Positions 3,250 through 61,356 of a DNA stretch of 64,000 bases are shown here, piece by piece; position 1 is the stretch's first letter; the number at the start of each line of letters is the position of its first letter. Below the pieces are notes generated by a model that did not search any database, had not been told where the DNA came from, and saw only the letters and a list, made by a program, of their open reading frames with translations. The DNA is taken from NCBI GenBank assembly GCA_963826535.1, contig CAWGXL010000011.1, positions 256,809 through 320,808 of the forward strand, given 5' to 3'. The translations under genes were made by a program, and so were the position numbers. This DNA is from an uncultured bacterium (GTDB lineage Bacteria > Patescibacteriota > Microgenomatia > Levybacterales > UBA12049).

Positions 3250-3474
3250 ATGCGTAAACATATTGTGTCTGATCCAAATATATTGAGCGGTAAGCCTGTG
3301 ATTGCGGGAACACGTATTCCTATTGTCCAGATACTTTTTTTACTAAAGACAGGCTATACGCTACAAGGAATCCAAGAGGAGTATCCCAATGTCAAACTTT
3401 CCACTTTACAACGCGTGTTAAACGAGTTGGCATCCGATATCTCTATTGCAAGGCATGACTCACAAAATTTATAA
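3250..3474 (+). CDS. DUF433-family protein (antitoxin-like)
   Basis: SGKPVIAGTRIPIVQIL motif characteristic of DUF433. Confidence 0.6.
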   Translation: MRKHIVSDPNILSGKPVIAGTRIPIVQILFLLKTGYTLQGIQEEYPNVKLSTLQRVLNELASDISIARHDSQNL

Positions 3475-3811
3475 ATTCAAACTGCTGCTTGATGAAGGTT
3501 TCTTCCGAAGACATAGGCTTGCAAAACTAAACCAGCTATATAACGTAAAACATATAACCGGAGATTTCCATAAAGAAGGTTTATCTGATCCTGACGTGGT
3601 AGAGATAGCAAAAAAGGAAAATCGGCTTGTGGTTACTTATAATGAAAAAGATTTCCGCACACTAGCAAATAAAAGCAAGGAAACAGGCGTGATCGGTATC
3701 TCTGATAATCTATCCGCGAAGCAGATTGATACGAAACTTACTGCGCTTTTAAAGCAAAGCAATCCAAAAGATCTTTTCGGCAGATTTACGCCTCTGAGCG
3801 GAGAAACATAA
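3446..3811 (+). CDS. DUF5615 / Mut7-C-like PIN-fold protein (toxin-like partner of DUF433)
   Basis: Overlaps the DUF433 gene. Resembles the three other DUF5615 ORFs in this window (LLLDE..., RLVVTYNEKDF). Confidence 0.55.
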   Translation: MQGMTHKIYKFKLLLDEGFFRRHRLAKLNQLYNVKHITGDFHKEGLSDPDVVEIAKKENRLVVTYNEKDFRTLANKSKETGVIGISDNLSAKQIDTKLTALLKQSNPKDLFGRFTPLSGET

Positions 3812-3838: not shown

Positions 3839-4747
3839 ATGAACTTCCTTGAAAAATATGATCTTCTGAAAAAATCTATTCCTGTACCTGCAATCATAAC
3901 CTTCCAATCAACTGATTGTGAATATGGAGATATCGTTTATAACAGTAAAAATTGTTACTATTGTTTCGATCCATCATATCTTATCGATGGGATGTATACC
4001 ACGCTTGGATTATGGAGTAATAAACTCGTAGATTGTACATCAGTATCGGAATCGGAAAAATGTTATCAATGTATTGATTCCAATAAATGTCATGACTCTA
4101 CATATCTTATGGATTGCAACAGTTGTACGGATTGCCATTTCTCAGCTTTTTTAAACTCTTGTACTGATTGTTTCGGTTGTGTTGCTTTAACGCATAAGAA
4201 ATATTGTATTTTTAACGAACAATTCTCCAAAGGAGAATATTTTAAAAAAGTTGAAGAATTAAAAAGAGAAAAACCGGAAAAGATTTTGGAGCAGATGATT
4301 GAATTAAAAAAACAGATACCTCATCCGGCTAGTCAGCAAGCCAATAATGAGAACTGTCCTTATGGCAATTATATTTACGATTCAAAAAATAGTTATTGGT
4401 GTTTTAATAGTTACTATGCTGAAAATTCAGGCTATAACTTCATAAGCGCGAACGCAAAGAACTGTTGGGATTTATATTGGTCAGGTAGTGGAGATCGAAG
4501 TCTTATAGCCGAGAGATGTTATGAACTAGTGATTTCAGGACGCTCTTCCTACGATTGTGCTTATTTATTACATAGCGATTTTTGTACAAACTGTTACTAT
4601 GGAGCATATCTTTTACACTGCTCCGACTGCTTCGGTTGTGTTGGGTTAAAAAATAAAAAATATTGCATTTTAAATAATCAACTTACGAAAGAACAATACG
4701 AAAAAGCACTTAAAGAGATCAAAAGTGAGCTGGGGTGGAAAATTTAA
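3839..4747 (+). CDS. Cys-rich repeat protein, paralog 2
   Basis: Same family, with a C-x2-C-x2-C-x8 15-residue periodicity. Confidence 0.85.
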   Translation: MNFLEKYDLLKKSIPVPAIITFQSTDCEYGDIVYNSKNCYYCFDPSYLIDGMYTTLGLWSNKLVDCTSVSESEKCYQCIDSNKCHDSTYLMDCNSCTDCHFSAFLNSCTDCFGCVALTHKKYCIFNEQFSKGEYFKKVEELKREKPEKILEQMIELKKQIPHPASQQANNENCPYGNYIYDSKNSYWCFNSYYAENSGYNFISANAKNCWDLYWSGSGDRSLIAERCYELVISGRSSYDCAYLLHSDFCTNCYYGAYLLHCSDCFGCVGLKNKKYCILNNQLTKEQYEKALKEIKSELGWKI

Positions 4748-5859: not shown

Positions 5860-6090
5860 TTAACGGCAGTTTTGTATGCATGATTTATATTTCGATGAGC
5901 AATAACCCCTGTGTGTCTGGACACAGAAATAGTAATATCGCAAACAAGCGTTCACGCAGGTTTGGCTGGGAGCGGCATAAGCATTCTGGACTAATGCGGA
6001 GGAGTTCCCTACCTTACCCACTAACGCAACTAAGGATATCACTCCGATGAACAATGCTACTCCTAAAAATGTAAATAGTATTTTTTTCAT
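5860..6090 (-). CDS. Small secreted Cys-rich peptide (76 aa precursor)
   Basis: Signal-peptide-like N-terminus plus a ~40-aa region with 6 Cys (CVNACLRYYYFCVQTHRGYCSSKYKSCIQNC). Confidence 0.45.
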   Translation of the reverse strand: MKKILFTFLGVALFIGVISLVALVGKVGNSSALVQNAYAAPSQTCVNACLRYYYFCVQTHRGYCSSKYKSCIQNCR

Positions 6091-6298
6091 AATACCACCC
6101 CCATCAAAAAATTAATTTTACGAGTGCATAATAAAATATCAGCCAAAATTTGTCAATAACCTGTAATATTTTTTTACATAAAACTCACACTAGAAATTTG
6201 AAGCGAAATTAAATGGCGAAACACAAAAATTTTCTTTTGACAAATGATTTAGAAATGCCTAGACTAGAATTAAGTCGCGCTTGTCAATTTAGCGATTT

Positions 6299-6901
6299 TT
6301 GTTTATGGCTAAAACTATGCATAGTATTAATCTGATGCCTAACCGTGGGGATACGGTACTTATACAATTTCTTAATTGGGCACTCACAATCGGACGCCTG
6401 CTTATCATCCTGGTTGAAACATTGGCGCTTGGTACGTTTCTTTACAGATTTTCTCTGGATATGCAGATCGTGGATTTAAAGGATAAAATAAAAGTTCAGC
6501 GTGCTTTTGTTACCAGTTATAAGAGCCAGGAAGAAATATTCAGGAATCTTCAGGACAGGCTTAATCTAGTCAAGAAATATGATACAAAAGCTGAGAGCAG
6601 TCCAAAGGCTTTAAGCGATATTATAGACATGGGACGCGGGTATATTACTTTTCGAAGTATATATATTTCCAATACGGTTTTTCGGATAGAAGCGTCAGCG
6701 CCGACAGTTGCACCTCTGACAGTGTTTGTTAATTCTCTGAAAAAGTATCCACTTATTAAGTCAATAAGCATAGATAAAGTGGAGAACAAGACATCAAGCG
6801 CCGAAATTATTGTGGGTATTAGCGCATATTTGACCGCGGATACAAAAGCCGCGGATACAACGGCCGAACAATTACAAACTCAGGAACCTTTTAAAGAATA
6901 A
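6299..6901 (+). CDS. pilN: PilN-like type IV pilus assembly protein
   Basis: N-terminal INLMP motif (PilN hallmark INLLP), one TM helix, then a coiled-coil periplasmic region. Confidence 0.5.
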   Translation: MFMAKTMHSINLMPNRGDTVLIQFLNWALTIGRLLIILVETLALGTFLYRFSLDMQIVDLKDKIKVQRAFVTSYKSQEEIFRNLQDRLNLVKKYDTKAESSPKALSDIIDMGRGYITFRSIYISNTVFRIEASAPTVAPLTVFVNSLKKYPLIKSISIDKVENKTSSAEIIVGISAYLTADTKAADTTAEQLQTQEPFKE

Positions 6902-6907
6902 AAAATT

Positions 6908-7534
6908 ATGATCAGACTGCCTAAGAATTTTTTTACAAACCTAACTCCCGCACAATATAAGGAGTATCTAAAGCTGTTACCTGACCTCAAGGATGAAAAG
7001 TCACAACTTTATGCCATGCTTGGGTTCACATTAGTCGCGATGTCGTTTTTTGGGATCTTTGCTATTAATCCTACACTTTCAACTATTGCAGAGTTAAAAC
7101 GGCAGCTCTCAGATTTGCATTTTGTTTACGAAAAACTTGTAACGAAAACACAAAATCTTAGTACGCTGCAGCAGAAATATCAATATTTATCAGGTGATCT
7201 TCCTGTAATAATTGATGCAATGCCCATGAAACCCGAGGTGCCAAAGTTTGTGGCTCAGATTAATGCGCTAATTGCGGAATCTAATTTAGAGACAAGAACA
7301 TTGCAGACTTATGGGGTAGAAATTACTCCGAATAAAAAAGTTCCTGAAAAACAAGCTTTATCTTATGTCTTTTCACTGGAAGCCGAGGGCACGTACGAGG
7401 AAATGCTTATATTTGTGCAGAAAATAACGCGGTTTAACCGACTGGTCACTATTGATATGCTCACTATTGCCAAAGACGAAAAAAGAGATGTGCTTATACT
7501 TAATTTGCGCGGCAGAGAGTATTTTAAACCGTAG
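6908..7534 (+). CDS. pilO: PilO-like pilus assembly protein
   Basis: Short cytoplasmic N-terminus, TM helix and coiled coil. Immediately downstream of the pilN-like gene. Confidence 0.45.
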   Translation: MIRLPKNFFTNLTPAQYKEYLKLLPDLKDEKSQLYAMLGFTLVAMSFFGIFAINPTLSTIAELKRQLSDLHFVYEKLVTKTQNLSTLQQKYQYLSGDLPVIIDAMPMKPEVPKFVAQINALIAESNLETRTLQTYGVEITPNKKVPEKQALSYVFSLEAEGTYEEMLIFVQKITRFNRLVTIDMLTIAKDEKRDVLILNLRGREYFKP

Positions 7535-7587
7535 CTTAAACCATCCGGGTATTATACGCTATATGAAATTTAATAAAAGAGGAGTAT

Positions 7588-8049
7588 ATGTTTAAACGAA
7601 GAGGAGTATTACTAGTTTTGTGGTTGACCTTTATTACGGTGGTGGCCTGGATCGGCTTTCATATATATCACATTACCGTAACTTCGACTATCAGCGAAGA
7701 GTTGCAATTGCAAATCATACCGATTGATCCTAATTTTGATATGGATACTATTAATAGACTAAAGGGGCGAGTAAAAGTTGAGCCGCTTTATCAATTTAAT
7801 GAGAACACCGCGTCCGCCTCCCCGCTTAGCGGGGCTGATGCAGACGTAGCTGACCCCGTTTCAATCGGGGCTGAGGCAAATTCTCCACCCGCCGACACGG
7901 GACAGGGTCCAATTGATGCAAGTCCAACGACCGACTCCCCGCAAAGCCTTGGCTCCGAGGGGCAAGCAGAGCCGGGCGACGAAAGGGCGACGGACGAGGG
8001 TATCTCTCCAACTGAAAGTACATTGCCGCTAGTAACCGGAGCGCCATGA
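7588..8049 (+). CDS. Membrane-anchored acidic S/P/D-rich protein (PilP-like?)
   Basis: N-terminal TM helix. Its ATGA stop overlaps the start of the next gene. Confidence 0.4.
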   Translation: MFKRRGVLLVLWLTFITVVAWIGFHIYHITVTSTISEELQLQIIPIDPNFDMDTINRLKGRVKVEPLYQFNENTASASPLSGADADVADPVSIGAEANSPPADTGQGPIDASPTTDSPQSLGSEGQAEPGDERATDEGISPTESTLPLVTGAP

Positions 8050-9632
8050 AAAAAAAGTTTTGGGATAAACGCATACCTTCTCTTCTAGGGCTCTTATTTT
8101 TAGCCATTTCGGTGGGTATGGTTGCGTGGTTTGGGGGAGGTTATACAGAACTCAGAGGAAGAGCTTCTGTTGAAGAAACTCCTAAAAATGTACAAATTTC
8201 TAATATAACTGACACATCCTTTACTGTTTTTTACACTACCGATATAAAGACGGAAGGCGCTGTAGCTTATGCCCGAGACCCGAGTTTCGGACAGGTAGGG
8301 CTTGACGACCGGGACCGGGAGAGCGGTAAACCCAGTTTGCGTCAGGTACACTACGTAACTCTAACACAACTCGATGCGGGCACGAAATATTATTTCGCGA
8401 TTCAGTCAGGAGCAACAACGCATCTAAATAATTCTCAACCATACGAGGTAACGACAGCGACAGTTAAGCTGGGGACTCCACCTAATAAGACTCCAATTGC
8501 AGGTACGGTTAATTTGGAGGATGGGAGTATTCCGCTGGAAGGAATTGTTTTTGTAGATACGTCGGCGTCCCCGCTCAGCGGGGCTGGGGCAAGCCCTTCG
8601 GCAGGCTTAGCGCCTAGCGGATCTGCGCAGACTTCGCAAATTCTATCCGTACTTCTGCGGGAAGACGGGAGTTATATCCTTCCTATTAGTTCCATGCGGA
8701 CAAAAGATCTGGCCACTTATATTGAATTTACTTCCGAAACTAAAATAAACCTGACCATTCTTAATGCAACAAGTCAGTCACGAGTCTCACTGCTCGCAAA
8801 TCAGACAAGTCCGGTTCCTTTGATTACATTATCCAAGGATTATGATTTTGCCGCTAATTCCCAGTCAATAACAAACCCCACAGCTTCCGGGTCCGGCACC
8901 ACGCTTAGCGGGGCCGGGGCTGCTTCTACTTCAGGTGAGTTAACTCCAAATGATTCCAATTCAGGATTTCCATTATTTCCCGCCACTGTTGCCAGCGGGC
9001 CGGCTATATTGACACCAGAAAACGATGAAAATTTTATTGACCCACAGCCTATATTTGCCGGAACGGCGCTGCCTAACGCAACAGTCGAAATTATAATTCA
9101 GTCAGATGAAACACTACAGGCAAGTGTTCAGTCGGATAATTTTGGTAATTGGCAATACCGGCCGCCTCTACCACTTACACCAGGCGAGCATATTTTTACA
9201 ATTATTGCCCGAGATACTAATGGCATCCTGCAGACTATTAATCGAAATTTTACTGTGTATGCGTCAGGCAGCCAATTTAACGAACCATCGATTGAGCCGA
9301 CAATTGATCCTAATGCAACTCCGACCAGTGCGGCTTCAGCTACACCAACACAATCCCCAACGCCTACAATAAATGTAACTCCTATATCACTGCCCACACC
9401 TACTACGTCATCTATTTCAGCTACGCCCGACTTGACACTAACAATTAGCCCGACACCAAATTTGGCGCTTACAATGGCCGCATTATCTGCGACCCCTGAT
9501 CCCGCTTCCCTTACAGCAACAGCCATGGCAACAGGCGCCACTATTGCTCCAAGCGGAAATTTTACATTGCTTTTTGCCGGTTTTATTGCTGCTCTTTCAA
9601 TTACCGCAGGTTTTGTGCTATTCTTCTTGTAG
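8046..9632 (+). CDS. Large surface protein with an Fn3-like domain, a T/P/S-rich linker and a C-terminal hydrophobic anchor
   Basis: N-terminal TM helix, an Fn3-like block (ISNITDTSFTVFYTTD...YYFAIQSG), Thr/Pro/Ser-rich tracts and a terminal TM segment (FAGFIAALSITAGFVLFFL). Confidence 0.6.
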   Translation: MKKKFWDKRIPSLLGLLFLAISVGMVAWFGGGYTELRGRASVEETPKNVQISNITDTSFTVFYTTDIKTEGAVAYARDPSFGQVGLDDRDRESGKPSLRQVHYVTLTQLDAGTKYYFAIQSGATTHLNNSQPYEVTTATVKLGTPPNKTPIAGTVNLEDGSIPLEGIVFVDTSASPLSGAGASPSAGLAPSGSAQTSQILSVLLREDGSYILPISSMRTKDLATYIEFTSETKINLTILNATSQSRVSLLANQTSPVPLITLSKDYDFAANSQSITNPTASGSGTTLSGAGAASTSGELTPNDSNSGFPLFPATVASGPAILTPENDENFIDPQPIFAGTALPNATVEIIIQSDETLQASVQSDNFGNWQYRPPLPLTPGEHIFTIIARDTNGILQTINRNFTVYASGSQFNEPSIEPTIDPNATPTSAASATPTQSPTPTINVTPISLPTPTTSSISATPDLTLTISPTPNLALTMAALSATPDPASLTATAMATGATIAPSGNFTLLFAGFIAALSITAGFVLFFL

Positions 9633-9647
9633 AAAAATTCCAGCGCT

Positions 9648-10556
9648 ATGACCTTTCTTGAGAAATTTGAGCTTCTGAAAAAATCTATTCCTGTTCCGGC
9701 TATTACAATAGGCCCAAATACGGTTGAGTGCGAATATTCAGATGCAATCTATATCGGTAAAAATTGTTATCACTGTTTTGACGGATATAAGATCTTTGAC
9801 AGTATGTTTACAAACTTTGGATGGGGAAATAAGGTTGTAGATTGCGAATATGTGACTGAATCTGAGAAAGTTTATGAATGCGTTGAATGTACTAAATGCT
9901 ATAACTCGACATTTCTAATAGACTGTAATAACTCGACAGATTGCCATTTTTCTTCATTATTAAATTCCTGCAGCGATTGTTTTGGATGTGTTGGTTTAAC
10001 TCACAAAAAATATTGTATTTTTAACCGGCAATATAGCAAAGAAGAATATCTGAAAAAAGTTGAAGAGTTAAAAAAACAAGAAGCTCAAAAGAATCTTAAG
10101 CAAATGCTTGAAATAAAACAGACAATTCCTCACCCGGCAAGCCAACAAGCCAATAACGAAAATTGCGCATATGGCAATTATATATATGGATCCAAAAACT
10201 GCTATTGGTGTTTTAATACATACTATAGTGAAAATTCAGGATTTACCTACTTCAGTGGAGCAGCGAAGAACTGTTGGGATATGTTTCAAGCAGGAGGTCA
10301 ACCGGATATTAAAATATTTTCAGAGCTTTGCTATGAGAATGTATATACAGATACATGTTACAATAGCGCATATTTAACATTTAGTGACAATTGTACAAAT
10401 TGCTCATACAGCGATCATCTTTTAAACTGCACCGATTGCTTCGGCTGCGTGGGGCTCAAAAATAAAAAATGCTGCATTTTAAATAATCAACTAAATCAAG
10501 TACAATACGAAAAAGCTGTAAAGAGCATAAAAAATGAGTTGGGATGGAAAAATTAG
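9648..10556 (+). CDS. Cys-rich repeat protein, paralog 3
   Basis: Same family. Starts 16 nt after the surface-protein gene. Confidence 0.85.
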   Translation: MTFLEKFELLKKSIPVPAITIGPNTVECEYSDAIYIGKNCYHCFDGYKIFDSMFTNFGWGNKVVDCEYVTESEKVYECVECTKCYNSTFLIDCNNSTDCHFSSLLNSCSDCFGCVGLTHKKYCIFNRQYSKEEYLKKVEELKKQEAQKNLKQMLEIKQTIPHPASQQANNENCAYGNYIYGSKNCYWCFNTYYSENSGFTYFSGAAKNCWDMFQAGGQPDIKIFSELCYENVYTDTCYNSAYLTFSDNCTNCSYSDHLLNCTDCFGCVGLKNKKCCILNNQLNQVQYEKAVKSIKNELGWKN

Positions 10557-10583
10557 AATCGATGAAAAATAATAATTAATGTT

Positions 10584-11480
10584 ATGACATTTTTAGAAAA
10601 ATATACATTGTTGAAAAAATCAATCCCAGTACCGGCGGTGACATTTGTGGGGAATATGGATTCCTCATACTCGAATTTTATGTGGTTGTGTAAAAATTGC
10701 CAATATTGTTTTCATGGATATAAACTTTATGATAGTTTATATGCAATCCACGCATGGGGACAAACTCTAGTTGACTGCCTTTATGTCACTGAATCCGAAA
10801 ATTGCTACGAATGTGTTGAATGTACAAAATGTTATGGTTCTACATACCTTATCGAAGGCAATAATTCGACAAATTGCCATTTTTCTGCACTTTTGAGCTC
10901 CTGCACCGATTGTTTTGGCTGCGTGGGGTTAACCAACAAAAAATATTGTATTTTTAATAAACAATTCTCAAAAGGAGATTACTTTGAGAAGTTAGAAGAA
11001 TTGAAAAAAGAACCATCAGAAAAGATCCTAACGCACATGTTTGATTTAAAAAAACAAATCCCCCATCCGGCAAGCCAGCAAGCTAATACTGAAAATTGTC
11101 CTTATGGAAATTATATATATGATTCAAAAAACAGTTATTGGTGTTTTAATAGTTATTATATAGAGAATAGCGGTTATAATACTTTTAGCGGATGGGCAAA
11201 AAACTGTTGGGATGTCTTTTTATTCGGAGAGCCTAATGGGGTTAATGAGTTATGTTATGAACATTTTTATACGGCACGATGTTTTAACTCAGCCTTTCTT
11301 ACTCATTCTACTGACTGTACCAATTGCCATAATAGTACGTATCTCAGAAACTGCTCAGACTGCTTCGGGTGTGTCGGACTAGCCAATAAAAAGTATTGCA
11401 TTTTGAATAATCAACTAACAAAAGACCAATATGAAATAGCTGTGAAAGAAATTAAGAAAGAATTGGGATGGAAAAATTAG
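10584..11480 (+). CDS. Cys-rich repeat protein, paralog 4
   Basis: Same family. Near-identical to paralog 6 in the N-terminal variable block. Confidence 0.85.
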   Translation: MTFLEKYTLLKKSIPVPAVTFVGNMDSSYSNFMWLCKNCQYCFHGYKLYDSLYAIHAWGQTLVDCLYVTESENCYECVECTKCYGSTYLIEGNNSTNCHFSALLSSCTDCFGCVGLTNKKYCIFNKQFSKGDYFEKLEELKKEPSEKILTHMFDLKKQIPHPASQQANTENCPYGNYIYDSKNSYWCFNSYYIENSGYNTFSGWAKNCWDVFLFGEPNGVNELCYEHFYTARCFNSAFLTHSTDCTNCHNSTYLRNCSDCFGCVGLANKKYCILNNQLTKDQYEIAVKEIKKELGWKN

Positions 11481-11508
11481 AATCGATGAAAAATAAAATT
11501 AAAATAGT

Positions 11509-12408
11509 ATGACATTTATTGAAAATTATGAGGTCCTGAAAAAATCTATTCCTGTTCCGGCTGTCTGGATTGATACGGTTACTAAAGACGCTGACTATAT
11601 TGATTATACTTATAGAAGCAAAGGCAGCTATTATGCTTTTGGGGGGTATTATCTTGAAGACTGTTTGTATACGGAATTTTGCGGCTGGGGGAATAAGCTT
11701 GTAGATTCACATTCAGTTACGAAAGCAGAAAAATGTTACTTTTGTATTAATTGCGACCAATGTCATAACTGTAGTTATCTAATGGATTGCAATAGCTGTA
11801 CAGATTGCCACTTCTCTGCATTTTTAAGTTCCTGCAACGATTGTTTTGGCTGCGTTGCTTTAACTCATAAAAAATATTGTATTTTTAACAAACAGTATAC
11901 AAAGCAAGAATATTTTAAAAAAGTAAAAGAATTAAAAAAAGAGGAACCTGATAATATCTTTGCACTAATGTTTGAGTTAAAAGAAAAAATTCCGCATCCT
12001 GCAAGCCGGCAAGTCGATAACGTAAATTGTCCTTATGGAAATTACATATACAATTCAAAAAACTGTTATTGGTCTTTTGGTACTTTTGAAAGCACAAACA
12101 GCGGTTATACTTATTATTGTTCGAGATTAAAAAATTGTTGGGACGTGTTCAGTTCAGGCGGAGAGCAGGGTACTGCGAAATGTTATTCTATTGTGAGTAC
12201 ACAGAACAGCGTTGACTCTGCGTTTTTAGATTTCTGTGAAGGATGTAGTAATTGTTATTATAGTCTTAGTTTGATAAACTGCACCGATTGTTTCGGTTGT
12301 GTGGGACTTAAAAATAAAAAATATTGTATTTTGAATAATCAGTTAACTAAAGAGAAATACGAAAGAGCAATGAAGAGCATCATAAAAGAATTAGAGTGGA
12401 AATTTTAG
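11509..12408 (+). CDS. Cys-rich repeat protein, paralog 5
   Basis: Same family. Confidence 0.85.
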   Translation: MTFIENYEVLKKSIPVPAVWIDTVTKDADYIDYTYRSKGSYYAFGGYYLEDCLYTEFCGWGNKLVDSHSVTKAEKCYFCINCDQCHNCSYLMDCNSCTDCHFSAFLSSCNDCFGCVALTHKKYCIFNKQYTKQEYFKKVKELKKEEPDNIFALMFELKEKIPHPASRQVDNVNCPYGNYIYNSKNCYWSFGTFESTNSGYTYYCSRLKNCWDVFSSGGEQGTAKCYSIVSTQNSVDSAFLDFCEGCSNCYYSLSLINCTDCFGCVGLKNKKYCILNNQLTKEKYERAMKSIIKELEWKF

Positions 12409-12465
12409 TGGGTGAGACTCGTCATTTTTTTTGTAAAAATTGTTCACTATGGTATACTAAGCGTG

Positions 12466-12705
12466 ATGAAGACTACGCGGTACTTTAGAGAACAAGTATT
12501 GCGTAAAAGATCTTTTATAAAGCAGTCATGGATCAAGCTAGCGCTTGCAAGACCGGATAAAAAGGAGATTCAAACAGACGGAAGAATGCGTTACTGGATT
12601 TATATATCAACCCTTAGGAAATATTTACGGGTTGTTACTTTATCAGACGGCGAGACGGTACATAACGCATTCCCGGATAGAAATTATAAAAAGGAAAAGC
12701 TATGA
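12466..12705 (+). CDS. DUF4258-family protein (toxin-like)
   Basis: Probable ATG at 12466, preceded by TTGTAA-16-TATACT at 12431-12459. Paired by a 4-nt overlap with the DUF2283-like gene. Confidence 0.5.
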   Translation: MKTTRYFREQVLRKRSFIKQSWIKLALARPDKKEIQTDGRMRYWIYISTLRKYLRVVTLSDGETVHNAFPDRNYKKEKL

Positions 12706-12917
12706 AATTTAACTATTATAAAGACACAGATTCACTCTATATTGATCTTTCTGAAAAAAAAAGTGTGGATTCCAAAGAAGTGAGTCCGGGAATTGTGCTG
12801 GATTTTGATGCAAAAGGAAATCTGGTTGGCATTGATATAGATCACGCAAGTAAGCATGTTAATTTAAAACGCCTGGAAACAGAAGGCGTTTCCTTTTCTA
12901 CAATTGTCTCGACATAA
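12702..12917 (+). CDS. DUF2283-family protein (antitoxin-like)
   Basis: MKFNYYKDTDSLYIDLSEKK... typical of DUF2283 (YDxxxDxLYI). Confidence 0.55.
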   Translation: MKFNYYKDTDSLYIDLSEKKSVDSKEVSPGIVLDFDAKGNLVGIDIDHASKHVNLKRLETEGVSFSTIVST

Positions 12918-12938
12918 CCCTTTGTTGAGGTTTCAATC

Positions 12939-13835
12939 ATGACCTTTCTTGAAAAATACGGGCTACTGGAAAAATCCGTTCCTATACCGGCGGTGACATT
13001 TATGGGGAATATGGATTCTTCATTTTCGGATTTTATGTGGATGTGTAAAAATTGCCAATATTGTTTTTTTGGATATAAACTTTATGACAGTCTCTATGCA
13101 ATCCATTCATGGGGGCAAACTCTAGTTGACTGCCTTTATGTCACCGAATCCGAAAATTGTTATGAATGTGTTGAATGCACAAAATGCTTTGGCTCTACAT
13201 ATCTTATAGATTGCGATAATAGTACAGATTGTCATTTTTCCGCACTACTCAACTCCTGCAACGATTGCTTCGGGTGTGTGGGTTTGAAACATAAGAGAAA
13301 CTGCATTTTTAATAAACAATACACCAAGGAAGAATATTTTAAAAAGCACGAAGAATTGAAAAATGAAAATCCCCAAAAGATGCTTAAGCAAATGCTTGAG
13401 TTAAAACAACAAATACCGCATCCGGCAAGCCAACAAGCCAATACTGAAAATTGTCCATATGGCAACTATATTTATGATTCAAATAGCAGTTATTGGTGTT
13501 TTAATAGCTACTATATTGAGAATTGCGGATATAATACTAATAGCGCTTGGGCAAAAAACTGTTGGGACGTATTCAAGTTTGGAGATCCTAAGGGAACTAA
13601 TGAATTGTGCTATGAACATTTCTATACGACGCTGTGTTATAACTCTGCCTTTCTTACACATTCTACCAGCTGTACCGAATGCCATTATAGTTCTTATTTA
13701 AGTAACTGCTCCAATTGCTTCGGATGTTTCGGGTTAAAGAATAAAAAATATTGTATTTTGAATAATCAGTTAACTAAAGAACAATATGAAAGCGCTGTAA
13801 AAGAAATTAGGAAAGAGCTTGGGTGGAAAATTTAG
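12939..13835 (+). CDS. Cys-rich repeat protein, paralog 6
   Basis: Same family. Confidence 0.85.
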   Translation: MTFLEKYGLLEKSVPIPAVTFMGNMDSSFSDFMWMCKNCQYCFFGYKLYDSLYAIHSWGQTLVDCLYVTESENCYECVECTKCFGSTYLIDCDNSTDCHFSALLNSCNDCFGCVGLKHKRNCIFNKQYTKEEYFKKHEELKNENPQKMLKQMLELKQQIPHPASQQANTENCPYGNYIYDSNSSYWCFNSYYIENCGYNTNSAWAKNCWDVFKFGDPKGTNELCYEHFYTTLCYNSAFLTHSTSCTECHYSSYLSNCSNCFGCFGLKNKKYCILNNQLTKEQYESAVKEIRKELGWKI

Positions 13836-13836
13836 T

Positions 13837-15096
13837 ATGAAAATTGCAATTATTGGGGCGGGGTTTACTGGGCTAACGGCCGCATATAAGATGGCTAAAG
13901 GAGGGCATAAAGTTACAGTTTTTGAAAAAGACAGTCAGCCGGGCGGTCTGGCAATTGGGTATAAGGAAAAAGGGTGGGATTGGACATTGGAGGCGTTTTA
14001 TCATCATTGGTTCACTAACGACTTCGCAGTACTAACTCTGGCAAAAGAACTAAATTTCCCGGTAATTATCAAGCGGCCGAAAACTTCTCAGCTTGTTGAC
14101 GGACAAATTGTCCAACTTGACTCACCCTCTACGCTCCTCGCATTTAAAAAGCTCTCAATTCCTGAACGAATACAGATGGGGTTTGTGCTGGCATTTCTAC
14201 GTTATAATCCCGTTTGGAAACCACTTGAACGGGTAACTGCAACTGCGTTTTTAGCAAAAACTATTGGAAGGCGCGCATATAAAATTATGTGGGAACCATT
14301 ATTGGTGGGCAAGTTTGGGAAATATGCGGATCAAATTTCTCTGGCTTGGTTTTGGGCACGAATAGCAAAACGGACGACAAATCTTGCATATCCGGAGGGA
14401 GGCTTTCTTCGATTTGCGAAACACCTGGAAAACGCTATAAAACAAAAAGGCGGAGTTATTAATTATAACGCATCAATTGATACAATTGCAGAAAAAAACG
14501 GGAAAGTAAAGATAGGAAAGTTTGGCTTATTTGATAAAGCTATTGTCACTCTTCCTTCATTTGCATTTTTAAAGCTTGCTCCGCAACTGCCGCCGCAGTA
14601 TCAAGCGTCACTTATGCAGCTTAAAGGTCTTGGGGCAATTGTGGTTGTGATGCGACTTAAGAAACCATTTTTCCCTGATGATACTTATTGGCTAAGTGTG
14701 TGTGATAAAAAAGCACCGGTCCTGGCAATTGTTGAACACACAAATATTATGAACAGTAAACACTATAATAATGAGCATCTTGTATACCTCGGGAACTACC
14801 TGCCAAAGGAACATAAATACTACTCTTTGACAGCTGAAGAACTACTCAAGACATTTGACCCGTTTCTAAAAACAATTAATCCTGATTATAATAAGTCACT
14901 AATAGGAGTGAAAAAATTCGATGTCCCGTTTGCGCAACCTATTATCCCAATTAACTATTCTCATATGATTCCCCCATTTGAAACGCCTATAAAAAATGTT
15001 TATCTGGCAAATATGCAACAGGTGTATCCATGGGACCGGGGAACGAATTATGCTGTGGAATTGGGAGAAAAAGTTGCAAAGTTAATCGGCGGATAA
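13837..15096 (+). CDS. FAD/NAD(P)-binding oxidoreductase (amine oxidase / phytoene desaturase-like)
   Basis: MKIAIIGAGFTGLTAAYKMAKGGHKVTVFEKDSQPGGL Rossmann motif. ATG one nt after the paralog 6 stop. Confidence 0.7.
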   Translation: MKIAIIGAGFTGLTAAYKMAKGGHKVTVFEKDSQPGGLAIGYKEKGWDWTLEAFYHHWFTNDFAVLTLAKELNFPVIIKRPKTSQLVDGQIVQLDSPSTLLAFKKLSIPERIQMGFVLAFLRYNPVWKPLERVTATAFLAKTIGRRAYKIMWEPLLVGKFGKYADQISLAWFWARIAKRTTNLAYPEGGFLRFAKHLENAIKQKGGVINYNASIDTIAEKNGKVKIGKFGLFDKAIVTLPSFAFLKLAPQLPPQYQASLMQLKGLGAIVVVMRLKKPFFPDDTYWLSVCDKKAPVLAIVEHTNIMNSKHYNNEHLVYLGNYLPKEHKYYSLTAEELLKTFDPFLKTINPDYNKSLIGVKKFDVPFAQPIIPINYSHMIPPFETPIKNVYLANMQQVYPWDRGTNYAVELGEKVAKLIGG

Positions 15097-44214: not shown

Positions 44215-45307
44215 TGTATAAGTTACGAAACATTTTAGACATTTCGTAACTATGGATCATTACGCAAAAGCATACCCAATCTTTAGTAGAATCAAAGGCA
44301 TTGAGGAGGTGAAAGAGATGCTCAAAAGCCTTAAACGGTTCTCTAGGGATGAAGTCGCACAAGAACGATTACGCATCATTGAGTTTTATGACGAGTATGG
44401 AGAGCGTGCAACGAAAAAAGCTTTTCGAGTTGGAAGGAATACCCTTTGGGTTTGGAAGCAACGATTAAAAAACAATAAAAACAAACTATCGTCACTTATT
44501 CCTGATTCCACAACGCCTAAATCCAAAAGACAAATGCAAACTCATCCAAAAGTACTTTCATATATCCGTTACTTGCGGGAGAAACATCCCCGTCTGGGAA
44601 AGGAAAAGATAAAACCACTTTTAGATCAATATTGCAAGAAAGAAGAGCTAGTAGCAATAGGAGAATCAACTATCGGAAAGGTCATTAAAAGAAATAATTT
44701 CTATTTCCAAAAGAGTGGCAAGATCTATCATAATCCTTCACATAAATTTGCTAAGGCAAAAAGAAAGAAGCGGGACAGGATCAAGAAGCCGCCAAGACCG
44801 CAGTCTTTTGGCTATATTGAAATGGATACAGTCATTAAATTTGTTGATGGAATAAAAGTATATTTTTTAACAGCCATAGATGTGAAGCTTAAATTTGCAT
44901 TCAGCCTGCCCTATGGCAAACTCAATAGCCGTAATACTGTTGATTTCTTCAAGAAGCTCCATTCAGTATATCCAATAACAATTATCACTGTGCAAACAGA
45001 CAATGGCTTAGAGTTTCTTGGAGAATTTGAAGAATACCTTGAAAAACAAAATATACCACATGTTTTTATATATCCCAGATGCTGCAAAATCAACGGCACT
45101 ATTGAACGGTTCAATAGAACCATCCAAGAAGACTTTATTGATGAAAACTTACATATTATTGCAGACCGAAAACTATTCTCTTCCAAATTAATCGAATATT
45201 TGTTATTCTACAATACAGAGCGACCACATAAATCCTTGGGATTACAATCCCCATTGGGATATTTATTAAAACATGGAGGTATGTCTAAAAACTCCGTAAC
45301 TTATACA
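44215..45307 (+). mobile_element. IS481-like insertion sequence (1093 bp) with 13-bp perfect inverted repeats TGTATAAGTTACG and a 5-bp target-site duplication ATCTC
   Basis: Left inverted repeat 44215-44227, right inverted repeat 45295-45307. ATCTC at 44210-44214 and 45308-45312. Confidence 0.8.
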
Positions 45308-45331
45308 ATCTCTTGCATTTTAAAAAAATAA
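44252..45331 (+). CDS. DDE transposase (rve integrase core, single ORF, IS481-family-like)
   Basis: N-terminal HTH and DDE core (TDNGLEF ... ERFNRT). The ORF reads through the right inverted repeat for 24 nt. Confidence 0.8.
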   Translation: MDHYAKAYPIFSRIKGIEEVKEMLKSLKRFSRDEVAQERLRIIEFYDEYGERATKKAFRVGRNTLWVWKQRLKNNKNKLSSLIPDSTTPKSKRQMQTHPKVLSYIRYLREKHPRLGKEKIKPLLDQYCKKEELVAIGESTIGKVIKRNNFYFQKSGKIYHNPSHKFAKAKRKKRDRIKKPPRPQSFGYIEMDTVIKFVDGIKVYFLTAIDVKLKFAFSLPYGKLNSRNTVDFFKKLHSVYPITIITVQTDNGLEFLGEFEEYLEKQNIPHVFIYPRCCKINGTIERFNRTIQEDFIDENLHIIADRKLFSSKLIEYLLFYNTERPHKSLGLQSPLGYLLKHGGMSKNSVTYTISCILKK

Positions 45332-49984: not shown

Positions 49985-50908
49985 TTAAGAAATGGTTGAG
50001 GTGTGATTAGAAAGCATCTTTTTGATCTCCTGATACCTTTTTTTTCTATCTTCTGGTGCGTCTGCGAAATTTTCATGAAAATCGGCCACATCTATAGGCT
50101 GCATGCCTTCATAGTCTTTAACTTGTATATTTGCTTTGCGCTCAAGTAATAGGTTGACAATCTCTGGCTCGCAAAGTGCAACTGCATTATGTAAATAAGG
50201 CATTGGATCATTAAAATATTCAGGGACGAAATTATTAGGATCAAATCTCGGGTCAGCTATGATCATGCGCGCAATTTTCCTATAATCATCTATCGAGGGT
50301 AGTTTTTGTTGTATGTCTGGTGGAAAGACTTGTACATAACCAATTTTATCTAAGACAAGATCTAATGCCGAGTATTTCTTATTTGGGTGTCGCTTGTTCG
50401 GATCCTGTTTTGGATGACGGAGAATTAAATCTACCCGATCGGGATATCCCTCTTCGGCTGCGCCCATTAGAGCGTTTCGATTCCGAATTTCTAGCGGATC
50501 TAGATCGTGACTGAATATTAAATTTGGATCATTCTGCAAATCCAGAAATATTTTCAAGATTTCGAGAGCAGATTGTTGATTTTTTGCCTTTGACGTAGCT
50601 GCCATACTGTATAGCCTATTCCAAATTTTCTCACCTTTTTCACTTTGTTGATGAAAGTTCACAAGAAGGTTTACGGATGCGACATTACCGGCCATTATTG
50701 CCAAGTCTATTGGTAGATGTCCATGAACATCAAAACCCATTCGACTAACTCCGTGATTGAGCAGAAGCTGGACTTTTTCTGATGCGTCACTACCCTCTAG
50801 ACATGCAGCTTCATGCATAAAAGTCCTAAACGGCGCTGGGTTAGTGCCGCCATGCTTCATTAGTTGTTCACGCCCGCCAGTAGGAACATTTGCCAAAATA
50901 AGAGCCAT
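49985..50908 (-). CDS. Ankyrin-repeat protein
   Basis: Several ANK-like helix pairs (HGHLPIDLAIMAGNVASVNLLV; NALMGAAEEGYPDRVDLIL; LHNAVALCEPEIVNLLLERKANIQVKD). Confidence 0.6.
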   Translation of the reverse strand: MALILANVPTGGREQLMKHGGTNPAPFRTFMHEAACLEGSDASEKVQLLLNHGVSRMGFDVHGHLPIDLAIMAGNVASVNLLVNFHQQSEKGEKIWNRLYSMAATSKAKNQQSALEILKIFLDLQNDPNLIFSHDLDPLEIRNRNALMGAAEEGYPDRVDLILRHPKQDPNKRHPNKKYSALDLVLDKIGYVQVFPPDIQQKLPSIDDYRKIARMIIADPRFDPNNFVPEYFNDPMPYLHNAVALCEPEIVNLLLERKANIQVKDYEGMQPIDVADFHENFADAPEDRKKRYQEIKKMLSNHTSTIS

Positions 50909-53594: not shown

Positions 53595-54632
53595 TCAATA
53601 TTTTCTGATATTCATATTTAAGTCAGCAATATGATTTACATATTTTATAAATCCAATTGCATTATCGGCGGGGGAGCGATCTAACGATTGAGATACGCAG
53701 GTTATATCATCTCCACACTTAGATAGTGCTTCAACTAATTGTTTTAGATGGGTGTATGCGAGAGCTGCGCCATAGGGAGATGACACATTGTATTTTTTTA
53801 GTTTATTTTGAAAATCCGGCGATATATCTTTGAATCCAAATGTCCACGCGCCTTCTAACTCTGATTTATAGTTTTTAAGAACATTATTTGTAATAGAATC
53901 ATCGACAGTACCGTAACGGAGATCGTATTTTAAATTCTTTATCACCTTGAGCGTATTGGCGGTATCGCCTTCAAATCCAACGTTAATGACTGCCTGAGCT
54001 CCTTGCGAATTTAACTTAAGAAGTTGAGTGCGAAAATCGGTATCACCTAAATTATAACCTTCTGAGATCATGTTATTGCCGTAAACTTCAACGACTCCAT
54101 TTTGGCAGATTTCACCAAATTCAAGATTTACCTTAAGTACACCAATTTTTACGGCTCCTTCATCTTTAAATTTTTGAGCAATACTTCTACATCCTTCTCT
54201 GTAATTTAGGTAGGTTTTGTAGAATAATAAATTATCTTTAAGAGGCGATACAGCTGCTGCTTCATAGATAAACGGAATGTGTTTATCTTTTAAGTACGAC
54301 CCAACAGCAATCGCGCCCGGGTTAAACTCTGCATAAATAGCATCTACTTTATCGGAATTAATAAGCTTTTGAGCTGCATTTGCCGCTAATGCGGCATTTA
54401 GACCATAATCTTCAAAAATGAATTCTACAGTTTTATCTTGTGAAGCTAATTCATTTTTAAGTATAAGAGCGCCAGCACGGGTTGATTCCCCCCAATAGGC
54501 TGCGGGGCCGGTAAGATCAGTAATAATACCTATCTTAATTGCGCCATTGTCGCTTGTATGTTGTAAATTAACTATTGCTACTATAACCAGGGCGATAATA
54601 ACAATGGCTACCCAAATAAATTTTTTATTCAT
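53595..54632 (-). CDS. ABC substrate-binding protein (branched-chain amino acid / Peripla_BP_6-type)
   Basis: Lipoprotein-like N-terminus. Paralogous to the binding proteins at 58276, 60240, 61357 and 63797. Confidence 0.7.
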   Translation of the reverse strand: MNKKFIWVAIVIIALVIVAIVNLQHTSDNGAIKIGIITDLTGPAAYWGESTRAGALILKNELASQDKTVEFIFEDYGLNAALAANAAQKLINSDKVDAIYAEFNPGAIAVGSYLKDKHIPFIYEAAAVSPLKDNLLFYKTYLNYREGCRSIAQKFKDEGAVKIGVLKVNLEFGEICQNGVVEVYGNNMISEGYNLGDTDFRTQLLKLNSQGAQAVINVGFEGDTANTLKVIKNLKYDLRYGTVDDSITNNVLKNYKSELEGAWTFGFKDISPDFQNKLKKYNVSSPYGAALAYTHLKQLVEALSKCGDDITCVSQSLDRSPADNAIGFIKYVNHIADLNMNIRKY

Positions 54633-55493: not shown

Positions 55494-55865
55494 CTATGCA
55501 GTTTGCTTCTTCGCTACTATCGCGCCAAGAGAACGAAAGCGTCCTCGGAAGTAATTAGAACCTTGCTTTATGAGTAGCGCGGTAAGCTTTGTATCGAGCA
55601 GCGTGCGCGGCCAAGTTTCGGGAATACCAATAATCCCAGGCGTATTTTTTCGCAATAAAGGACGAAAGTGTTTGACGTTGCGAGTAAGAATAATGCGTCC
55701 CTGTTTTATTGCCAACTCATGTATTGGCGGGTCATCCATTCCTCCATGATGCAGGTCGTGATTGATGTGTTTTACGTCAAAGCGTTGATTAAGGCGAGGT
55801 AGAAACTGACGGGGTGGTAAGTGCTCATCGAGTAACAATTTGTGTTTATAAAACGGTTTCGGCAT
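55494..55865 (-). CDS. DUF5615-like PIN-fold protein
   Basis: KHKLLLDEHLPP...RIILTRNVKHF. Start trimmed to MPKPFYK. Confidence 0.5.
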   Translation of the reverse strand: MPKPFYKHKLLLDEHLPPRQFLPRLNQRFDVKHINHDLHHGGMDDPPIHELAIKQGRIILTRNVKHFRPLLRKNTPGIIGIPETWPRTLLDTKLTALLIKQGSNYFRGRFRSLGAIVAKKQTA

Positions 55866-56073
55866 GTGTGGGTTCTGCGCTGAGGTACTGTGTTGCTTCC
55901 TCGACTGCACCCCGAAGCGTGCTTGTAGACACATGCGGGAACCACTCGTTGTGTAATTCTTCAATAGTAAATCCATTAGCAAGCATATTAATTACCTGCG
56001 CAACTGTGATACGAGTGCCCTTAATCGTCAACTCCCCACCTACCCGCTCTTTGCGTGACTCAAGGTATTTCAT
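55846..56073 (-). CDS. DUF433-family protein
   Basis: GELTIKGTRITVAQVINML. Confidence 0.55.
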   Translation of the reverse strand: MKYLESRKERVGGELTIKGTRITVAQVINMLANGFTIEELHNEWFPHVSTSTLRGAVEEATQYLSAEPTHAETVL

Positions 56074-56274: not shown

Positions 56275-57171
56275 ATGTTGGGATTACTCTGCTATATAAT
56301 AATCATGGATATTTTACCTCAATTAATAGTAAATAGCATTATTGCCGGGGCGATCTATTCGATGATTGCTTTGGGGTTTAATTTGATCTACGGTACGGCT
56401 AAATTTTTTGATCTGGGATATGGAGCATTGACGGCTGTGGGTGGATATGCTGTTTTCTATTTTTATAAAACACTTGGGTTAGATTTATATATTTCGGTGG
56501 TTTTGGGGCTTCTTATTGCCGGGTGTATTGGGTATTTGATTTACCGTTTCGTATATACTCCACTTCGCGCGCGAAAATCTTCAAGCATGGTCCTATTGGT
56601 CGCATCACTTGGAGCATTTACTATGCTTCAGGCTATTATTGCAATTCTATTCACAAGTCAGTTTCAGACGTTGTCGCGTAATGCCGGAACTGAGCAGGTC
56701 TTTAATGTGTTTGGCGGGGTGATTACGCAAACACAATTGATTATTCTTATTCTTGGCGTGCTAATTATGATGGGGCTGGGAATAGTTCTTAAATATACTA
56801 TGATGGGCAAGGCGGTAAAGGCGGTGGCTGATGATGAGGAGGTGTCGCAAATCGTTGGTATAAATACATCCAAGATTATTGGTTTGGTGTTTTTTATTGG
56901 TTCGGCAATTGCGGGTCTGGCAGGTATATTAATTGGATTTGATACAGGTATTGAGCCGACCATGGGATTTTCTTTGCTTTTGAAGGGTGTGATCGCTTGT
57001 ATTATCGGCGGCATAGGTAATGTATATGGAGGCTTTTTGGGCGCGTTTCTGCTGGGATTTATTGAAAACTTCGGTATATGGAAAATTTCAGGGGAATGGA
57101 AGGATGCAATTGCGTTTGTGGTTTTGATTATTTTCCTGCTGTTTAGGCCAAAAGGAATATTAAGGAAATAG
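56275..57171 (+). CDS. livH: Branched-chain amino acid ABC transporter permease (LivH-like)
   Basis: Eight TM helices; family resemblance. Confidence 0.7.
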   Translation: MLGLLCYIIIMDILPQLIVNSIIAGAIYSMIALGFNLIYGTAKFFDLGYGALTAVGGYAVFYFYKTLGLDLYISVVLGLLIAGCIGYLIYRFVYTPLRARKSSSMVLLVASLGAFTMLQAIIAILFTSQFQTLSRNAGTEQVFNVFGGVITQTQLIILILGVLIMMGLGIVLKYTMMGKAVKAVADDEEVSQIVGINTSKIIGLVFFIGSAIAGLAGILIGFDTGIEPTMGFSLLLKGVIACIIGGIGNVYGGFLGAFLLGFIENFGIWKISGEWKDAIAFVVLIIFLLFRPKGILRK

Positions 57172-57194
57172 CTTATGTTACACAAAAATAATTT

Positions 57195-57237
57195 GTCATT
57201 CCCCTGGACCCTCCAGAGGCGGGCGGGCAGGGGAATC
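57195..57237. repeat. Palindromic element GTCATTCCCCTG-N20-CAGGGGAATC
   Basis: Read directly. Sits in the livH-livM spacer. Confidence 0.5.
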
Positions 57238-57295
57238 TAGAAGATATAAATAACTCTTCTTTATAAGGGGGAAATGAAAAAACTTATTTTACCTC

Positions 57296-57327
57296 CTGGA
57301 TTCCCGCGTTCGCGGGAATGACAACTG
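57296..57327. repeat. 32-bp palindromic repeat CTGGATTCCCGCGTTCGCGGGAATGACAACTG
   Basis: 31/32 identical to 37700-37731. Confidence 0.6.
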
Positions 57328-57348
57328 ATTAAGTCCTAAAATAAACTT

Positions 57349-58215
57349 ATGGAATATCTTATTCACATTCTCATACTCATTAGCATATACGCAATTTTGG
57401 GGCTTTCTTTGAATCTGGTTGTTGGATATACAGGACTCCTATCTGTCACTCAGGCGGCATTCTACGGTATTGGGGCTTATGTTACGGCAATTCTTTTAAC
57501 TACAACGGGGATGAATTTTTTTCCAGCTTTGTTAATTGGAATAGTGATAACCGGAGTCTTGAGTCTATTAATTGGTTTTGTGCTTTCGAAATTTAAGGAT
57601 GATTACTTTGCCCTTGGGTCATTTGGATTTAATGTAATAATCTATAGTATTTTTTTGAATTGGCAGGAATTGACACGCGGGCCTTTGGGAATTCCCGGTA
57701 TTCCCAGGCCTGAATTATTTGGTTTTACCTTTTCCGATAATCTTTCGTTTTTAATTCTAACTGTTGCTTGTGCGCTGGTTATATATGGGTTGTGCGTTTT
57801 TATAACCTGTTCGTCATTTGGGCGGGTGCTCAAAGCTATACGGGAAGATGAAGAAGCGTTAAGCGTTTTTGGCTACCGAACTTTGTGGTTCAAACTAACT
57901 ATATTTGTGATTAGCGCAATGATGGCCTCTGTGGCCGGATCGCTTTTTGCGAGTTATATTACATTTATTGATCCTTCAACTTTTACTCTGACTGAGTCTA
58001 TATTTATTTTGGCAATAATCATCCTCGGCGGTTTGGCGAATAATAAGGGAGCAGTTATTGGAGCAGTATGCCTGATACTACTTCCTGAAATTCTAAGGTT
58101 TGTGGGTTTTCCTTCAGATATTGCCGCGCAGATGAGACAGGTGACTTATGGGCTGCTGTTAATATTGCTTATGCTCTACAGGCCGCAGGGGTTATTGGGA
58201 GAGTATAGATTATAA
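57349..58215 (+). CDS. livM: Branched-chain amino acid ABC transporter permease (LivM-like)
   Basis: Multi-TM permease. Confidence 0.7.
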   Translation: MEYLIHILILISIYAILGLSLNLVVGYTGLLSVTQAAFYGIGAYVTAILLTTTGMNFFPALLIGIVITGVLSLLIGFVLSKFKDDYFALGSFGFNVIIYSIFLNWQELTRGPLGIPGIPRPELFGFTFSDNLSFLILTVACALVIYGLCVFITCSSFGRVLKAIREDEEALSVFGYRTLWFKLTIFVISAMMASVAGSLFASYITFIDPSTFTLTESIFILAIIILGGLANNKGAVIGAVCLILLPEILRFVGFPSDIAAQMRQVTYGLLLILLMLYRPQGLLGEYRL

Positions 58216-61352: not shown

Positions 61353-61356
61353 AAGT

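Follow-up and report, generated by a model that had tools for sequence, protein, structure and literature searches.

A pilN-pilO cassette with two envelope-protein genes, probably inherited as one unit in Candidatus Levyibacteriota, and the apparently unrelated Cys-rich array beside it

Which genes belong together at a locus where divergent pilus-assembly genes run straight into an array of Cys-rich paralogs? The question is raised by a stretch of 64,000 nt (hereafter the window) from contig CAWGXL010000011.1 of an uncultured bacterium of the Levybacterales. An original prediction, made from the letters of the window, had joined pilN- and pilO-like genes, two envelope genes (here called P3 and P4) and a Cys-rich gene family into one cell-surface or pilus-associated module. 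All six open reading frames (ORFs) that it named are present. Nevertheless, our analysis leads to another grouping, which we consider probable, if by no means certain. According to it, pilN, pilO, P3 and P4 form one operon at positions 6305-9632 that has been handed down as a block across Candidatus Levyibacteriota; both envelope proteins take part in the PilN/PilO ring, P4 being fixed by its C-terminus in or to the wall; and the Cys-rich array is a recent and functionally unrelated insertion.

Evidence for the unit was first sought in gene order. The sample comprised 55 loci with a relative of the cassette, taken from species-representative genomes, and 6 further contigs, making 61 loci; the informative records among the 55 belong to Candidatus Levyibacteriota or Patescibacteria. 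When the window proteins were mapped onto the loci that were long enough, the order pilN-pilO-P3-P4 was found in 55/55 genome loci and in the 6 further contigs. Median intergenic spacings in the related loci are 0.5 nt for pilN-pilO, 1 nt for pilO-P3 and -4 nt for P3-P4. The P3-to-P4 spacing stays between -8 and +5 nt in all 55 loci, mostly through an ATGA overlap like that of the window. About 60 independent loci carry conserved homologs of all four ORFs in unchanged order, which marks these as real genes and not chance ORFs.

The surroundings of the cassette are less constant. In most relatives it is preceded by fusA and the S10/tuf region, and followed by an FAD-dependent oxidoreductase (AmOx) and then by PMT-type glycosyltransferases. 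An FKBP gene lies upstream in the window and in its closest relative, L062 (85% identical), and in L063 the genes 3' of the oxidoreductase differ from those found elsewhere. The cassette is unbroken in these three loci, despite flanks that differ from those of the fusA-flanked loci. As the flanks vary while the four genes stay together, the four genes behave as one unit.

Rate covariation was analysed with pairwise distance matrices from 43 genomes, using AmOx as the species control. The matrices of the four cassette proteins intercorrelate with r=0.65-0.86 (PilO versus PilN, r=0.86; P4 versus PilN, r=0.82), whereas the cassette proteins compared with the adjacent AmOx give only r=0.11-0.23. 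At the level of sequence distances this shows co-inheritance as a block and is no proof of co-evolution, because the control gene AmOx does not track the cassette. P3 and P4 are inherited with pilN and pilO and, judging by the overlaps, probably translated together. A promoter-like site, TTGACA-17-TAGACT (6237..6265, + strand), lies about 40 nt 5' of the pilN start; it agrees with the consensus at 10/12 positions and is a pattern match only.

What does the cassette encode? The first gene, pilN (6305..6901, + strand), specifies a divergent type IVa pilus (T4aP) assembly-subcomplex protein with an INLMP motif, one transmembrane (TM) helix, a coiled coil and a ferredoxin-like domain. Its likely true start is the ATG at 6305 (MAKTMHSINLMP), which agrees with the family consensus MAxxMHxINLLP; alternative starts are the TTG at 6299 (ORF 6299-6901) and the ATG at 6317, where the database copy P0001 begins. 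A homolog search returned 217 relatives, several of them with a precomputed PF05137 match. In an alignment of 36 PilN homologs the I, N, L and P of INL[LM]P are invariant, and 16 of the 36 match PF05137 at E<=0.01 (best 5.9e-6). In the AlphaFold2 (AF2) model the N-terminal peptide is disordered; it is followed by a helix at residues 14-88 that covers the TM segment and the coiled coil, and by an a-b-b-a-b-b domain at 95-172 with helices at 95-106 and 131-142. Its top Foldseek match is the T4aP machine 3jc8 (E 5.6e-4), followed by the GspL-type periplasmic domains of EpsL (2w7v) and XcpY (5n7l), with TM-scores of 0.72-0.73 and root-mean-square deviations (rmsd) of about 2 Å (for EpsL, TM-score 0.72 and rmsd 2.1); Thermus PilN (4bhq) and Pseudomonas PilO (2rjz) were also matched. 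The PilN identity, which had been read from the INLMP motif before a single TM helix and a coiled coil, is confirmed at the level of the family and of the predicted fold by the invariant motif, the PF05137 matches of its homologs and the AF2/Foldseek comparison, the window copy itself being without PF05137.

The PilM-binding peptide has the consensus INLLP. In characterised systems, cytoplasmic PilM is bound by the first 8 residues of PilN (PMC6325625, PMC6916266). Given that the N-terminal peptide of PilN is invariant, a PilM partner is implied elsewhere in the genome, and the pilN/pilO pair would then work with a pilM/pilB/pilC/pilT locus encoded elsewhere.

The second gene, pilO (6908..7534, + strand), starts 6 nt past the pilN stop and encodes a bitopic protein of 208 aa, a diderm-like size, with one hydrophobic segment at about 35-56. 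Residues 61-194 match PF04350 (E 6.3e-13, 49.5 bits against a gathering score of 22), and PF04350 is also present in the PilO orthologs of related loci. The PilO identity, earlier suggested by topology, is borne out by this score. Motif and profile matches show pilN and pilO to encode predicted bitopic membrane parts of the T4aP assembly (alignment) sub-complex.

The third gene, P3 (7588..8049, + strand), is preceded by the Shine-Dalgarno sequence GAGGAG, and its stop TGA overlaps the ATG of P4 (ATGA). It encodes a small bitopic membrane protein and is, as had been described, a TM-anchored acidic protein overlapping P4. An alignment of 54 orthologs (83-153 aa) gives a common layout: a short basic N-terminus, a TM helix, a conserved extracytoplasmic segment of about 45 residues and a variable, disordered tail that is acidic or rich in Ser/Thr/Pro (acidic in the window copy). 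W21, I46, F50 and R61 are invariant, and the consensus of the extracytoplasmic segment is YH..VTSTI...Q..I.PI.P.FD..TI..LK.R..V.P.Y. The P3 family profile returned noise only, and no relative, from Pfam and the PDB. We also considered P3 as a relative of PilP; profile searches gave no sequence evidence for it, and P3 stays an orphan.

The fourth gene, P4 (8046..9632, + strand; Pfam Big_13, Pur_ac_phosph_N and fn3), encodes an envelope protein of 528 aa. Pfam, the alignment and the AF2 model agree with its earlier description as an fn3/Ig-like, Thr/Pro/Ser-rich surface protein. The model places a TM helix at residues 13-38, an fn3 domain at 45-137, a middle beta-sandwich at 150-270 and a Big_13 Ig-like domain at 320-404, with pLDDT >90 in the domains; the C-terminal half continues with a disordered Pro/Thr/Ser stalk (411-505) and a hydrophobic helix (506-528). 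Searched against the PDB with Foldseek, the full model matched no T4P or secretion component. In the N-terminal segment, P11 and G15 are nearly invariant and A40 is invariant. This conservation appears to be above that expected for a cleaved signal peptide, and the invariant Ala40 could be a cleavage site after the long helix 13-38.

At the other end of P4 lies a feature of the family that the original prediction overlooked, an LPXTG-like C-terminal signal. In the window this sorting-signal-like segment (9543..9629, + strand) consists of IAPSGN (9543-9560), a degenerate LPXTG, and a hydrophobic helix of 23 residues. Across 40 aligned orthologs the stalk leads into [LIV]P x [TS] G [NS] and then into a hydrophobic helix, to which many copies add a basic tail, as in LPPTGNSSVIIASIFGFITAFFGLTTLFLIRGKKYI, and in the basal clade the signal is canonical (e.g. 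LPPTGN...RGKK). The architecture of 52 distinct orthologs was tabulated: the N-terminal helix is present in all 52, the C-terminal hydrophobic helix in 48, an LPXTG-like motif in 35 (the strict form [LIV]Px[TS]G in 23), a basic tail in 15 and Big_13 in 37. The sortase-dependent surface-protein model NF053819 matches the same C-terminal segment with E 4.4e-4, below its cut-off. PGF-CTERM and PEP-CTERM signals were considered and rejected, the motif [LIV]P x [TS] G being closest to LPXTG. The C-terminal half of P4 is modular. The basal clade L043-L050 has a P4 of about 360 aa without Big_13, yet with the most canonical LPXTG signals.

Does the window hold the rest of a type IV pilus (T4P) machine? 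Pfam scans covered nearly all window ORFs of >=90 aa, and motif scans covered the window and the 61 loci (1.07 Mb). Among the ORFs scanned there was no Pfam match to PilM, T2SSE/T2SSF, prepilin peptidase, secretin or sortase, and regular expressions for the prepilin leader, the T2SSE Walker A motif and the sortase motif TLxTC gave zero true matches. The original prediction had reported no pilM, pilin or secretin gene in the window, and the Pfam and prepilin-motif scans agree with it. The canonical pilMNOPQ layout is absent, too: the gene 5' of pilN is the six-Cys ORF or the FKBP gene (fusA in relatives) and not pilM, and Pfam and profile searches gave no PilP (PF04351) or secretin signal in P3 or P4. 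With no pilM, PilP or secretin in place, this is no canonical T4P operon, as had been noted. The cassette is separated from other pilus genes throughout the phylum. Because its context holds no T4P genes, the link to pili rests on homology and on the conserved PilM-binding motif. Such a separated cassette fits the T4P locus of Microgenomates Ch65, which has PilM and no reported PilN/PilO. In the complete genome of Ch65 the only T4P locus encodes PilA, minor pilins and PilD/B/T/C/M, PilN/PilO are unreported, and a sortase gene is present (PMC7143001).

How could the four proteins act together? In the operon, P3 and P4 stand where diderm pilMNOPQ has pilP and pilQ. We infer a role of P3 and P4 as a membrane-to-wall tether, along the following lines. 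PilN would dock PilM, encoded elsewhere, through its N-terminal peptide, and PilN and PilO would form dimers on the outer side of the membrane. Within the membrane, the PilN/PilO ring would take in P3 and the N-terminal part of P4, whose stalk would span the wall. The C-terminus of P4 would either stay in the membrane or, given a canonical motif, be transferred to peptidoglycan by sortase. The outcome would be a membrane-to-wall tether aligning the pilus machine with the wall in a bacterium without outer membrane. In its full form this proposal makes P3 and P4 previously undescribed parts of a monoderm T4P, with the N-terminus of P4 together with P3 in the PilN/PilO ring and its C-terminus fixed by sortase to peptidoglycan, forming a tether or outer guide that replaces PilP/PilQ. 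We put forward this full form as a tentative idea.

Several observations weigh against the reading of the four genes as a pilus-machine operon with a wall-fixed P4. Pfam searches of the two pil ORFs split: PilO matches PF04350, and the window PilN has no Pfam match (PF05137, none at E<=1). The PilN family profile found no meaningful sequence relative in the PDB, which made the fold comparison necessary. Neither the 64-kb window nor the surrounding +/-10 kb of the 61 loci yielded a gene for PilM, an ATPase, a platform protein, a prepilin peptidase, a pilin or a sortase. AmOx is a weak control, and the distance correlations may merely mirror inheritance as one block. The P4 model retrieves from the PDB only generic tandem FN3/Ig adhesin arrays. 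The P4 motif of the window is degenerate (IAPSGN) and lacks a basic tail, and the best case for the LPXTG_anchor model TIGR01167, the L053 ortholog, scores 15.8 bits, just under the cut-off of 15.9 (further P4 orthologs score 13 and 12 bits). Finally, short P4 forms of 273-284 aa, with only the TM helix, the fn3 domain and the middle domain and without Big_13, stalk and C-terminal anchor, occur in 4 genomes (L049, L052, L056, L059). We ruled out an assembly artefact as the origin of the short forms, for AmOx starts 33-88 nt past the stop in these four separate genomes. Given that short forms exist, wall anchoring is not a universal core function, and together with the generic folds they call for caution on a role in the pilus machine.

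The main alternative sees in P3 and P4 two adhesins displayed on the wall for attachment to a host or surface, which share with pilNO only the operon and its regulation. P4 has the architecture of a Gram-positive surface protein (signal/anchor, Ig domains, Pro/Thr stalk, LPXTG-like end), its folds resemble tandem FN3/Ig adhesins and Ca-stabilised adhesin repeats, and its domain content is modular, with Big_13 variably present and the short forms in four genomes. Moreover, episymbiotic Patescibacteria need adhesins (PMC11623550). However, adhesins usually vary and move, whereas P3 and P4 are fixed beside pilNO across the phylum and overlap by 4 nt in almost every locus. The conserved TM and juxtamembrane motif of P4 (P11, G15 and A40) is unusual for a cleaved signal peptide, and P4 distances follow those of PilN/PilO as closely as PilN and PilO follow each other. 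We regard an adhesin pair as possible, though unlikely on the present balance.

A second alternative is that PilN and PilO were co-opted, with P3 and P4, for an envelope complex other than a pilus, like the PilMNO homologues of flagellar motors. There are documented precedents for such a change of role in PilMNO homologues (PMC10823254; bioRxiv 10.1101/2023.04.27.537399), and in every locus the cassette stands apart from the remaining T4P genes. T4P genes are, however, often scattered across several loci, and the invariant PilM-binding motif argues for a retained PilM partner. In addition, the T4P locus of a related Microgenomates, which has pilM and no reported pilN/pilO (PMC7143001), could be supplied with the pair by such a cassette. 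Co-option therefore seems to us improbable.

The remaining question concerns the Cys-rich genes, which the original prediction had considered probably co-transcribed with the module. The spacer between P4 and paralog 3 (9633..9647, + strand) is 15 nt long, AAAAATTCCAGCGCT, and holds no terminator-like, promoter-like or Shine-Dalgarno site, so that read-through from P4 into paralog 3, as a by-product of the insertion, is plausible. To that extent the claim stands; a functional link, in contrast, is not supported. Synteny speaks against Cys-rich genes as members of the module. P4 is directly followed by AmOx wherever a related locus has enough DNA; about 45 loci show this arrangement, with a median gap of 16 nt and a maximum of 145 nt, and relatives with 70% and 64% PilN identity are among them. 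No Cys-rich gene was found at the P4-AmOx junction in about 50 related loci, and the lone related genome with a Cys-rich copy near the cassette has it about 5 kb upstream.

In the window, P4 is separated from AmOx, its ancestral 3' neighbour (13837..15096, + strand; Pfam Amino_oxidase and NAD_binding_8), by a lineage-specific insertion of 4.2 kb (9648..13835, + strand), which lies outside the conserved module. AmOx scores 397.6 bits against NCBIfam PRK07233, an uncharacterised family with a cut-off of 252. The insertion carries Cys-rich paralogs on the + strand at 9648-10556, 10584-11480, 11509-12408 and 12939-13835, an ORF of 97 aa without assignment (12412-12705) and a DUF2283 gene (12702-12917). 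Other Cys-rich paralogs of the window are found at 1803-2711 and 3839-4747 (+ strand); paralog 1, unlike paralog 3, has its own TTGACA/TATAAT. The proteins have about 300 aa, with 24-26 Cys and an internal duplication, are 53-80% identical among paralogs, and show no signal peptide, TM segment or Pfam domain. The family has 877 detectable relatives. Of the top 120 matches, the source contig of 894,453 bp accounts for at least 28 distinct paralogs, about 3% of a sub-megabase genome, and related genomes have several more copies, on contigs of 494, 196 and 148 kb. By gene order and copy number, the array is to all appearances a recent chance insertion of a massively expanded, presumably cytoplasmic gene family. 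A functional, co-transcribed part of the surface/pilus module it is almost certainly not: the same strand, the short spacer and the lack of an own Shine-Dalgarno at paralog 3 are outweighed by the empty junction in relatives, by proteins without signal peptide or TM helix, and by at least 28 dispersed paralogs in arrays interspersed with toxin-antitoxin-like genes.

Two toxin-antitoxin-like pairs lie among the Cys-rich paralogs, one formed by DUF433 and DUF5615 genes (3250-3474, 3446-3811) and the other by the 97-aa ORF and the DUF2283 gene; an additional DUF5615 gene is found elsewhere in the window (55494-55982). Their presence suggests that the paralog arrays lie in plastic genome regions. 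As for the oxidoreductase, its divergence is discordant with that of the cassette, L026 being 73% identical in AmOx and 46% in PilN, which may point to another history, for instance replacement or transfer. Downstream of AmOx, relatives have 2-3 PMT_2 protein-mannosyltransferase-like genes, and these enzymes could glycosylate Ser/Thr-rich stalks such as that of P4.

Upstream of the cassette, the divergent ORF that had been described on the minus strand is present (5860..6090). It lies outside the conserved module and encodes a small predicted secreted peptide of 76 aa, whose N-terminus resembles a signal peptide, ending AYA|A, and whose mature part contains six Cys. A promoter-like site, TTGACA-17-TATTAT (6156-6128, - strand), agrees with the consensus at 11/12 positions, and a G-rich Shine-Dalgarno-like stretch is found at the ORF. 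The gene is absent from L062, where just 118 nt separate FKBP from pilN, an absence that had also been overlooked. No tblastn match was obtained in any related locus, and the exact sequence is absent from a collection of 15 billion proteins.

Other features of the window are remote from the cassette. Four paralogous Peripla_BP_6 solute-binding proteins and two BPD_transp_2 permeases (53595-54632 on the - strand, 56275-58215, 58276-59418 and 60240-62478) form an expanded ABC uptake cluster of the branched-chain-amino-acid type. An rve-family integrase, possibly of an insertion sequence (IS) element, is found at 44252-45331 (+ strand) and an ankyrin-repeat protein at 49985-50908 (- strand). Rfam and tRNA scans across the whole 64 kb returned no Rfam families and no tRNA genes. 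Among the cassette-bearing loci, many metagenome-assembled genome (MAG) records are labelled 'uncultured Gammaproteobacteria bacterium' (L005, L009, L017, L019, L021, L023 and others), and further labels are Lysobacterales, Acidiferrales and Sulfotelmatobacter; these look like placeholder or wrong taxonomy in bulk submissions.

T4P are central to the episymbiosis of Patescibacteria, serving in host binding, motility and possibly DNA uptake, and their machines are known in this group solely from gene lists and a few studies of Saccharibacteria. The cassette, undescribed in the literature searched, which held nothing specific on Levybacteria pili or on INLLP, is a testable candidate for the missing link between machine and wall, being phylum-conserved and translationally coupled and including a predicted wall-anchored protein. 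Its interest would be greater if P3 and P4 were indeed wall-anchoring parts of the pilus machine. Divergent and separately encoded pilN/pilO genes explain why the pair goes unreported in Microgenomates T4P loci. Furthermore, the supposed pilus link of the Cys-rich family is removed as a false lead, and the family is a striking expansion in itself.

The cassette can be compared first with the diderm T4aP operon pilMNOPQ of Pseudomonas aeruginosa and Myxococcus xanthus (3jc8). Both have a PilN with PilM-binding peptide, TM helix, coiled coil and ferredoxin-like domain, a PilO of similar size, and adjacent pilN and pilO genes followed by two envelope genes, the first small and membrane-anchored with a disordered region, the second large and multi-domain. 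They differ in that pilM is missing from the operon of our organism, which has no outer membrane; in that P3 has neither a PF04351 signal nor a beta-domain; and in that P4 is no secretin and consists of Ig/FN3 domains, a stalk and an LPXTG-like end. Thermus thermophilus pilMNOWQ is similar in that PilW, a TM-anchored protein peculiar to that lineage, is inserted between pilO and the outer component. However, Thermus keeps pilM and a secretin, and we found no sequence or fold relation of P3 to any solved protein.

Monoderm T4aP, as in Streptococcus sanguinis and Clostridium (PMC6916266), share with the cassette the lack of secretin and PilP, so that crossing of the wall or anchoring in it needs another component. 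Pelicic describes how monoderm machines work without PilP/PilQ, with wall crossing or anchoring unexplained, and speculates that the enlarged PilO of Firmicutes handles it (PMC6916266). Firmicutes have pilM-pilN-pilO within the full pil locus, a PilO much larger than PilN and another PilM-contact motif, whereas the cassette has a PilO of about the size of PilN, keeps the diderm-type INLLP and carries its extra extracytoplasmic mass in P3 and P4. A patescibacterial T4aP without secretin is also found in Saccharibacteria TM7x (PMC11623550) and in Ch65 (PMC7143001); neither of these two papers describes partners of the P3/P4 type, and TM7x differs in keeping pilM-pilN-pilO inside each T4P locus (PMC11623550).

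Finally, P4 resembles the Ig-like LPXTG surface proteins of Gram-positive bacteria (TIGR01167; NF053819, EF0750 family) in its Ig-like domains, its Pro/Thr-rich, wall-spanning stalk and the succession of [LIV]Px[TS]G and hydrophobic helix, with a basic tail added in 15 orthologs. Unlike them, it scores at or just below the curated cut-offs, and the window copy has IAPSGN and no basic tail. P4 also differs in an N-terminal segment that is conserved like a functional TM helix and in a gene that is fixed in the pilNO operon.

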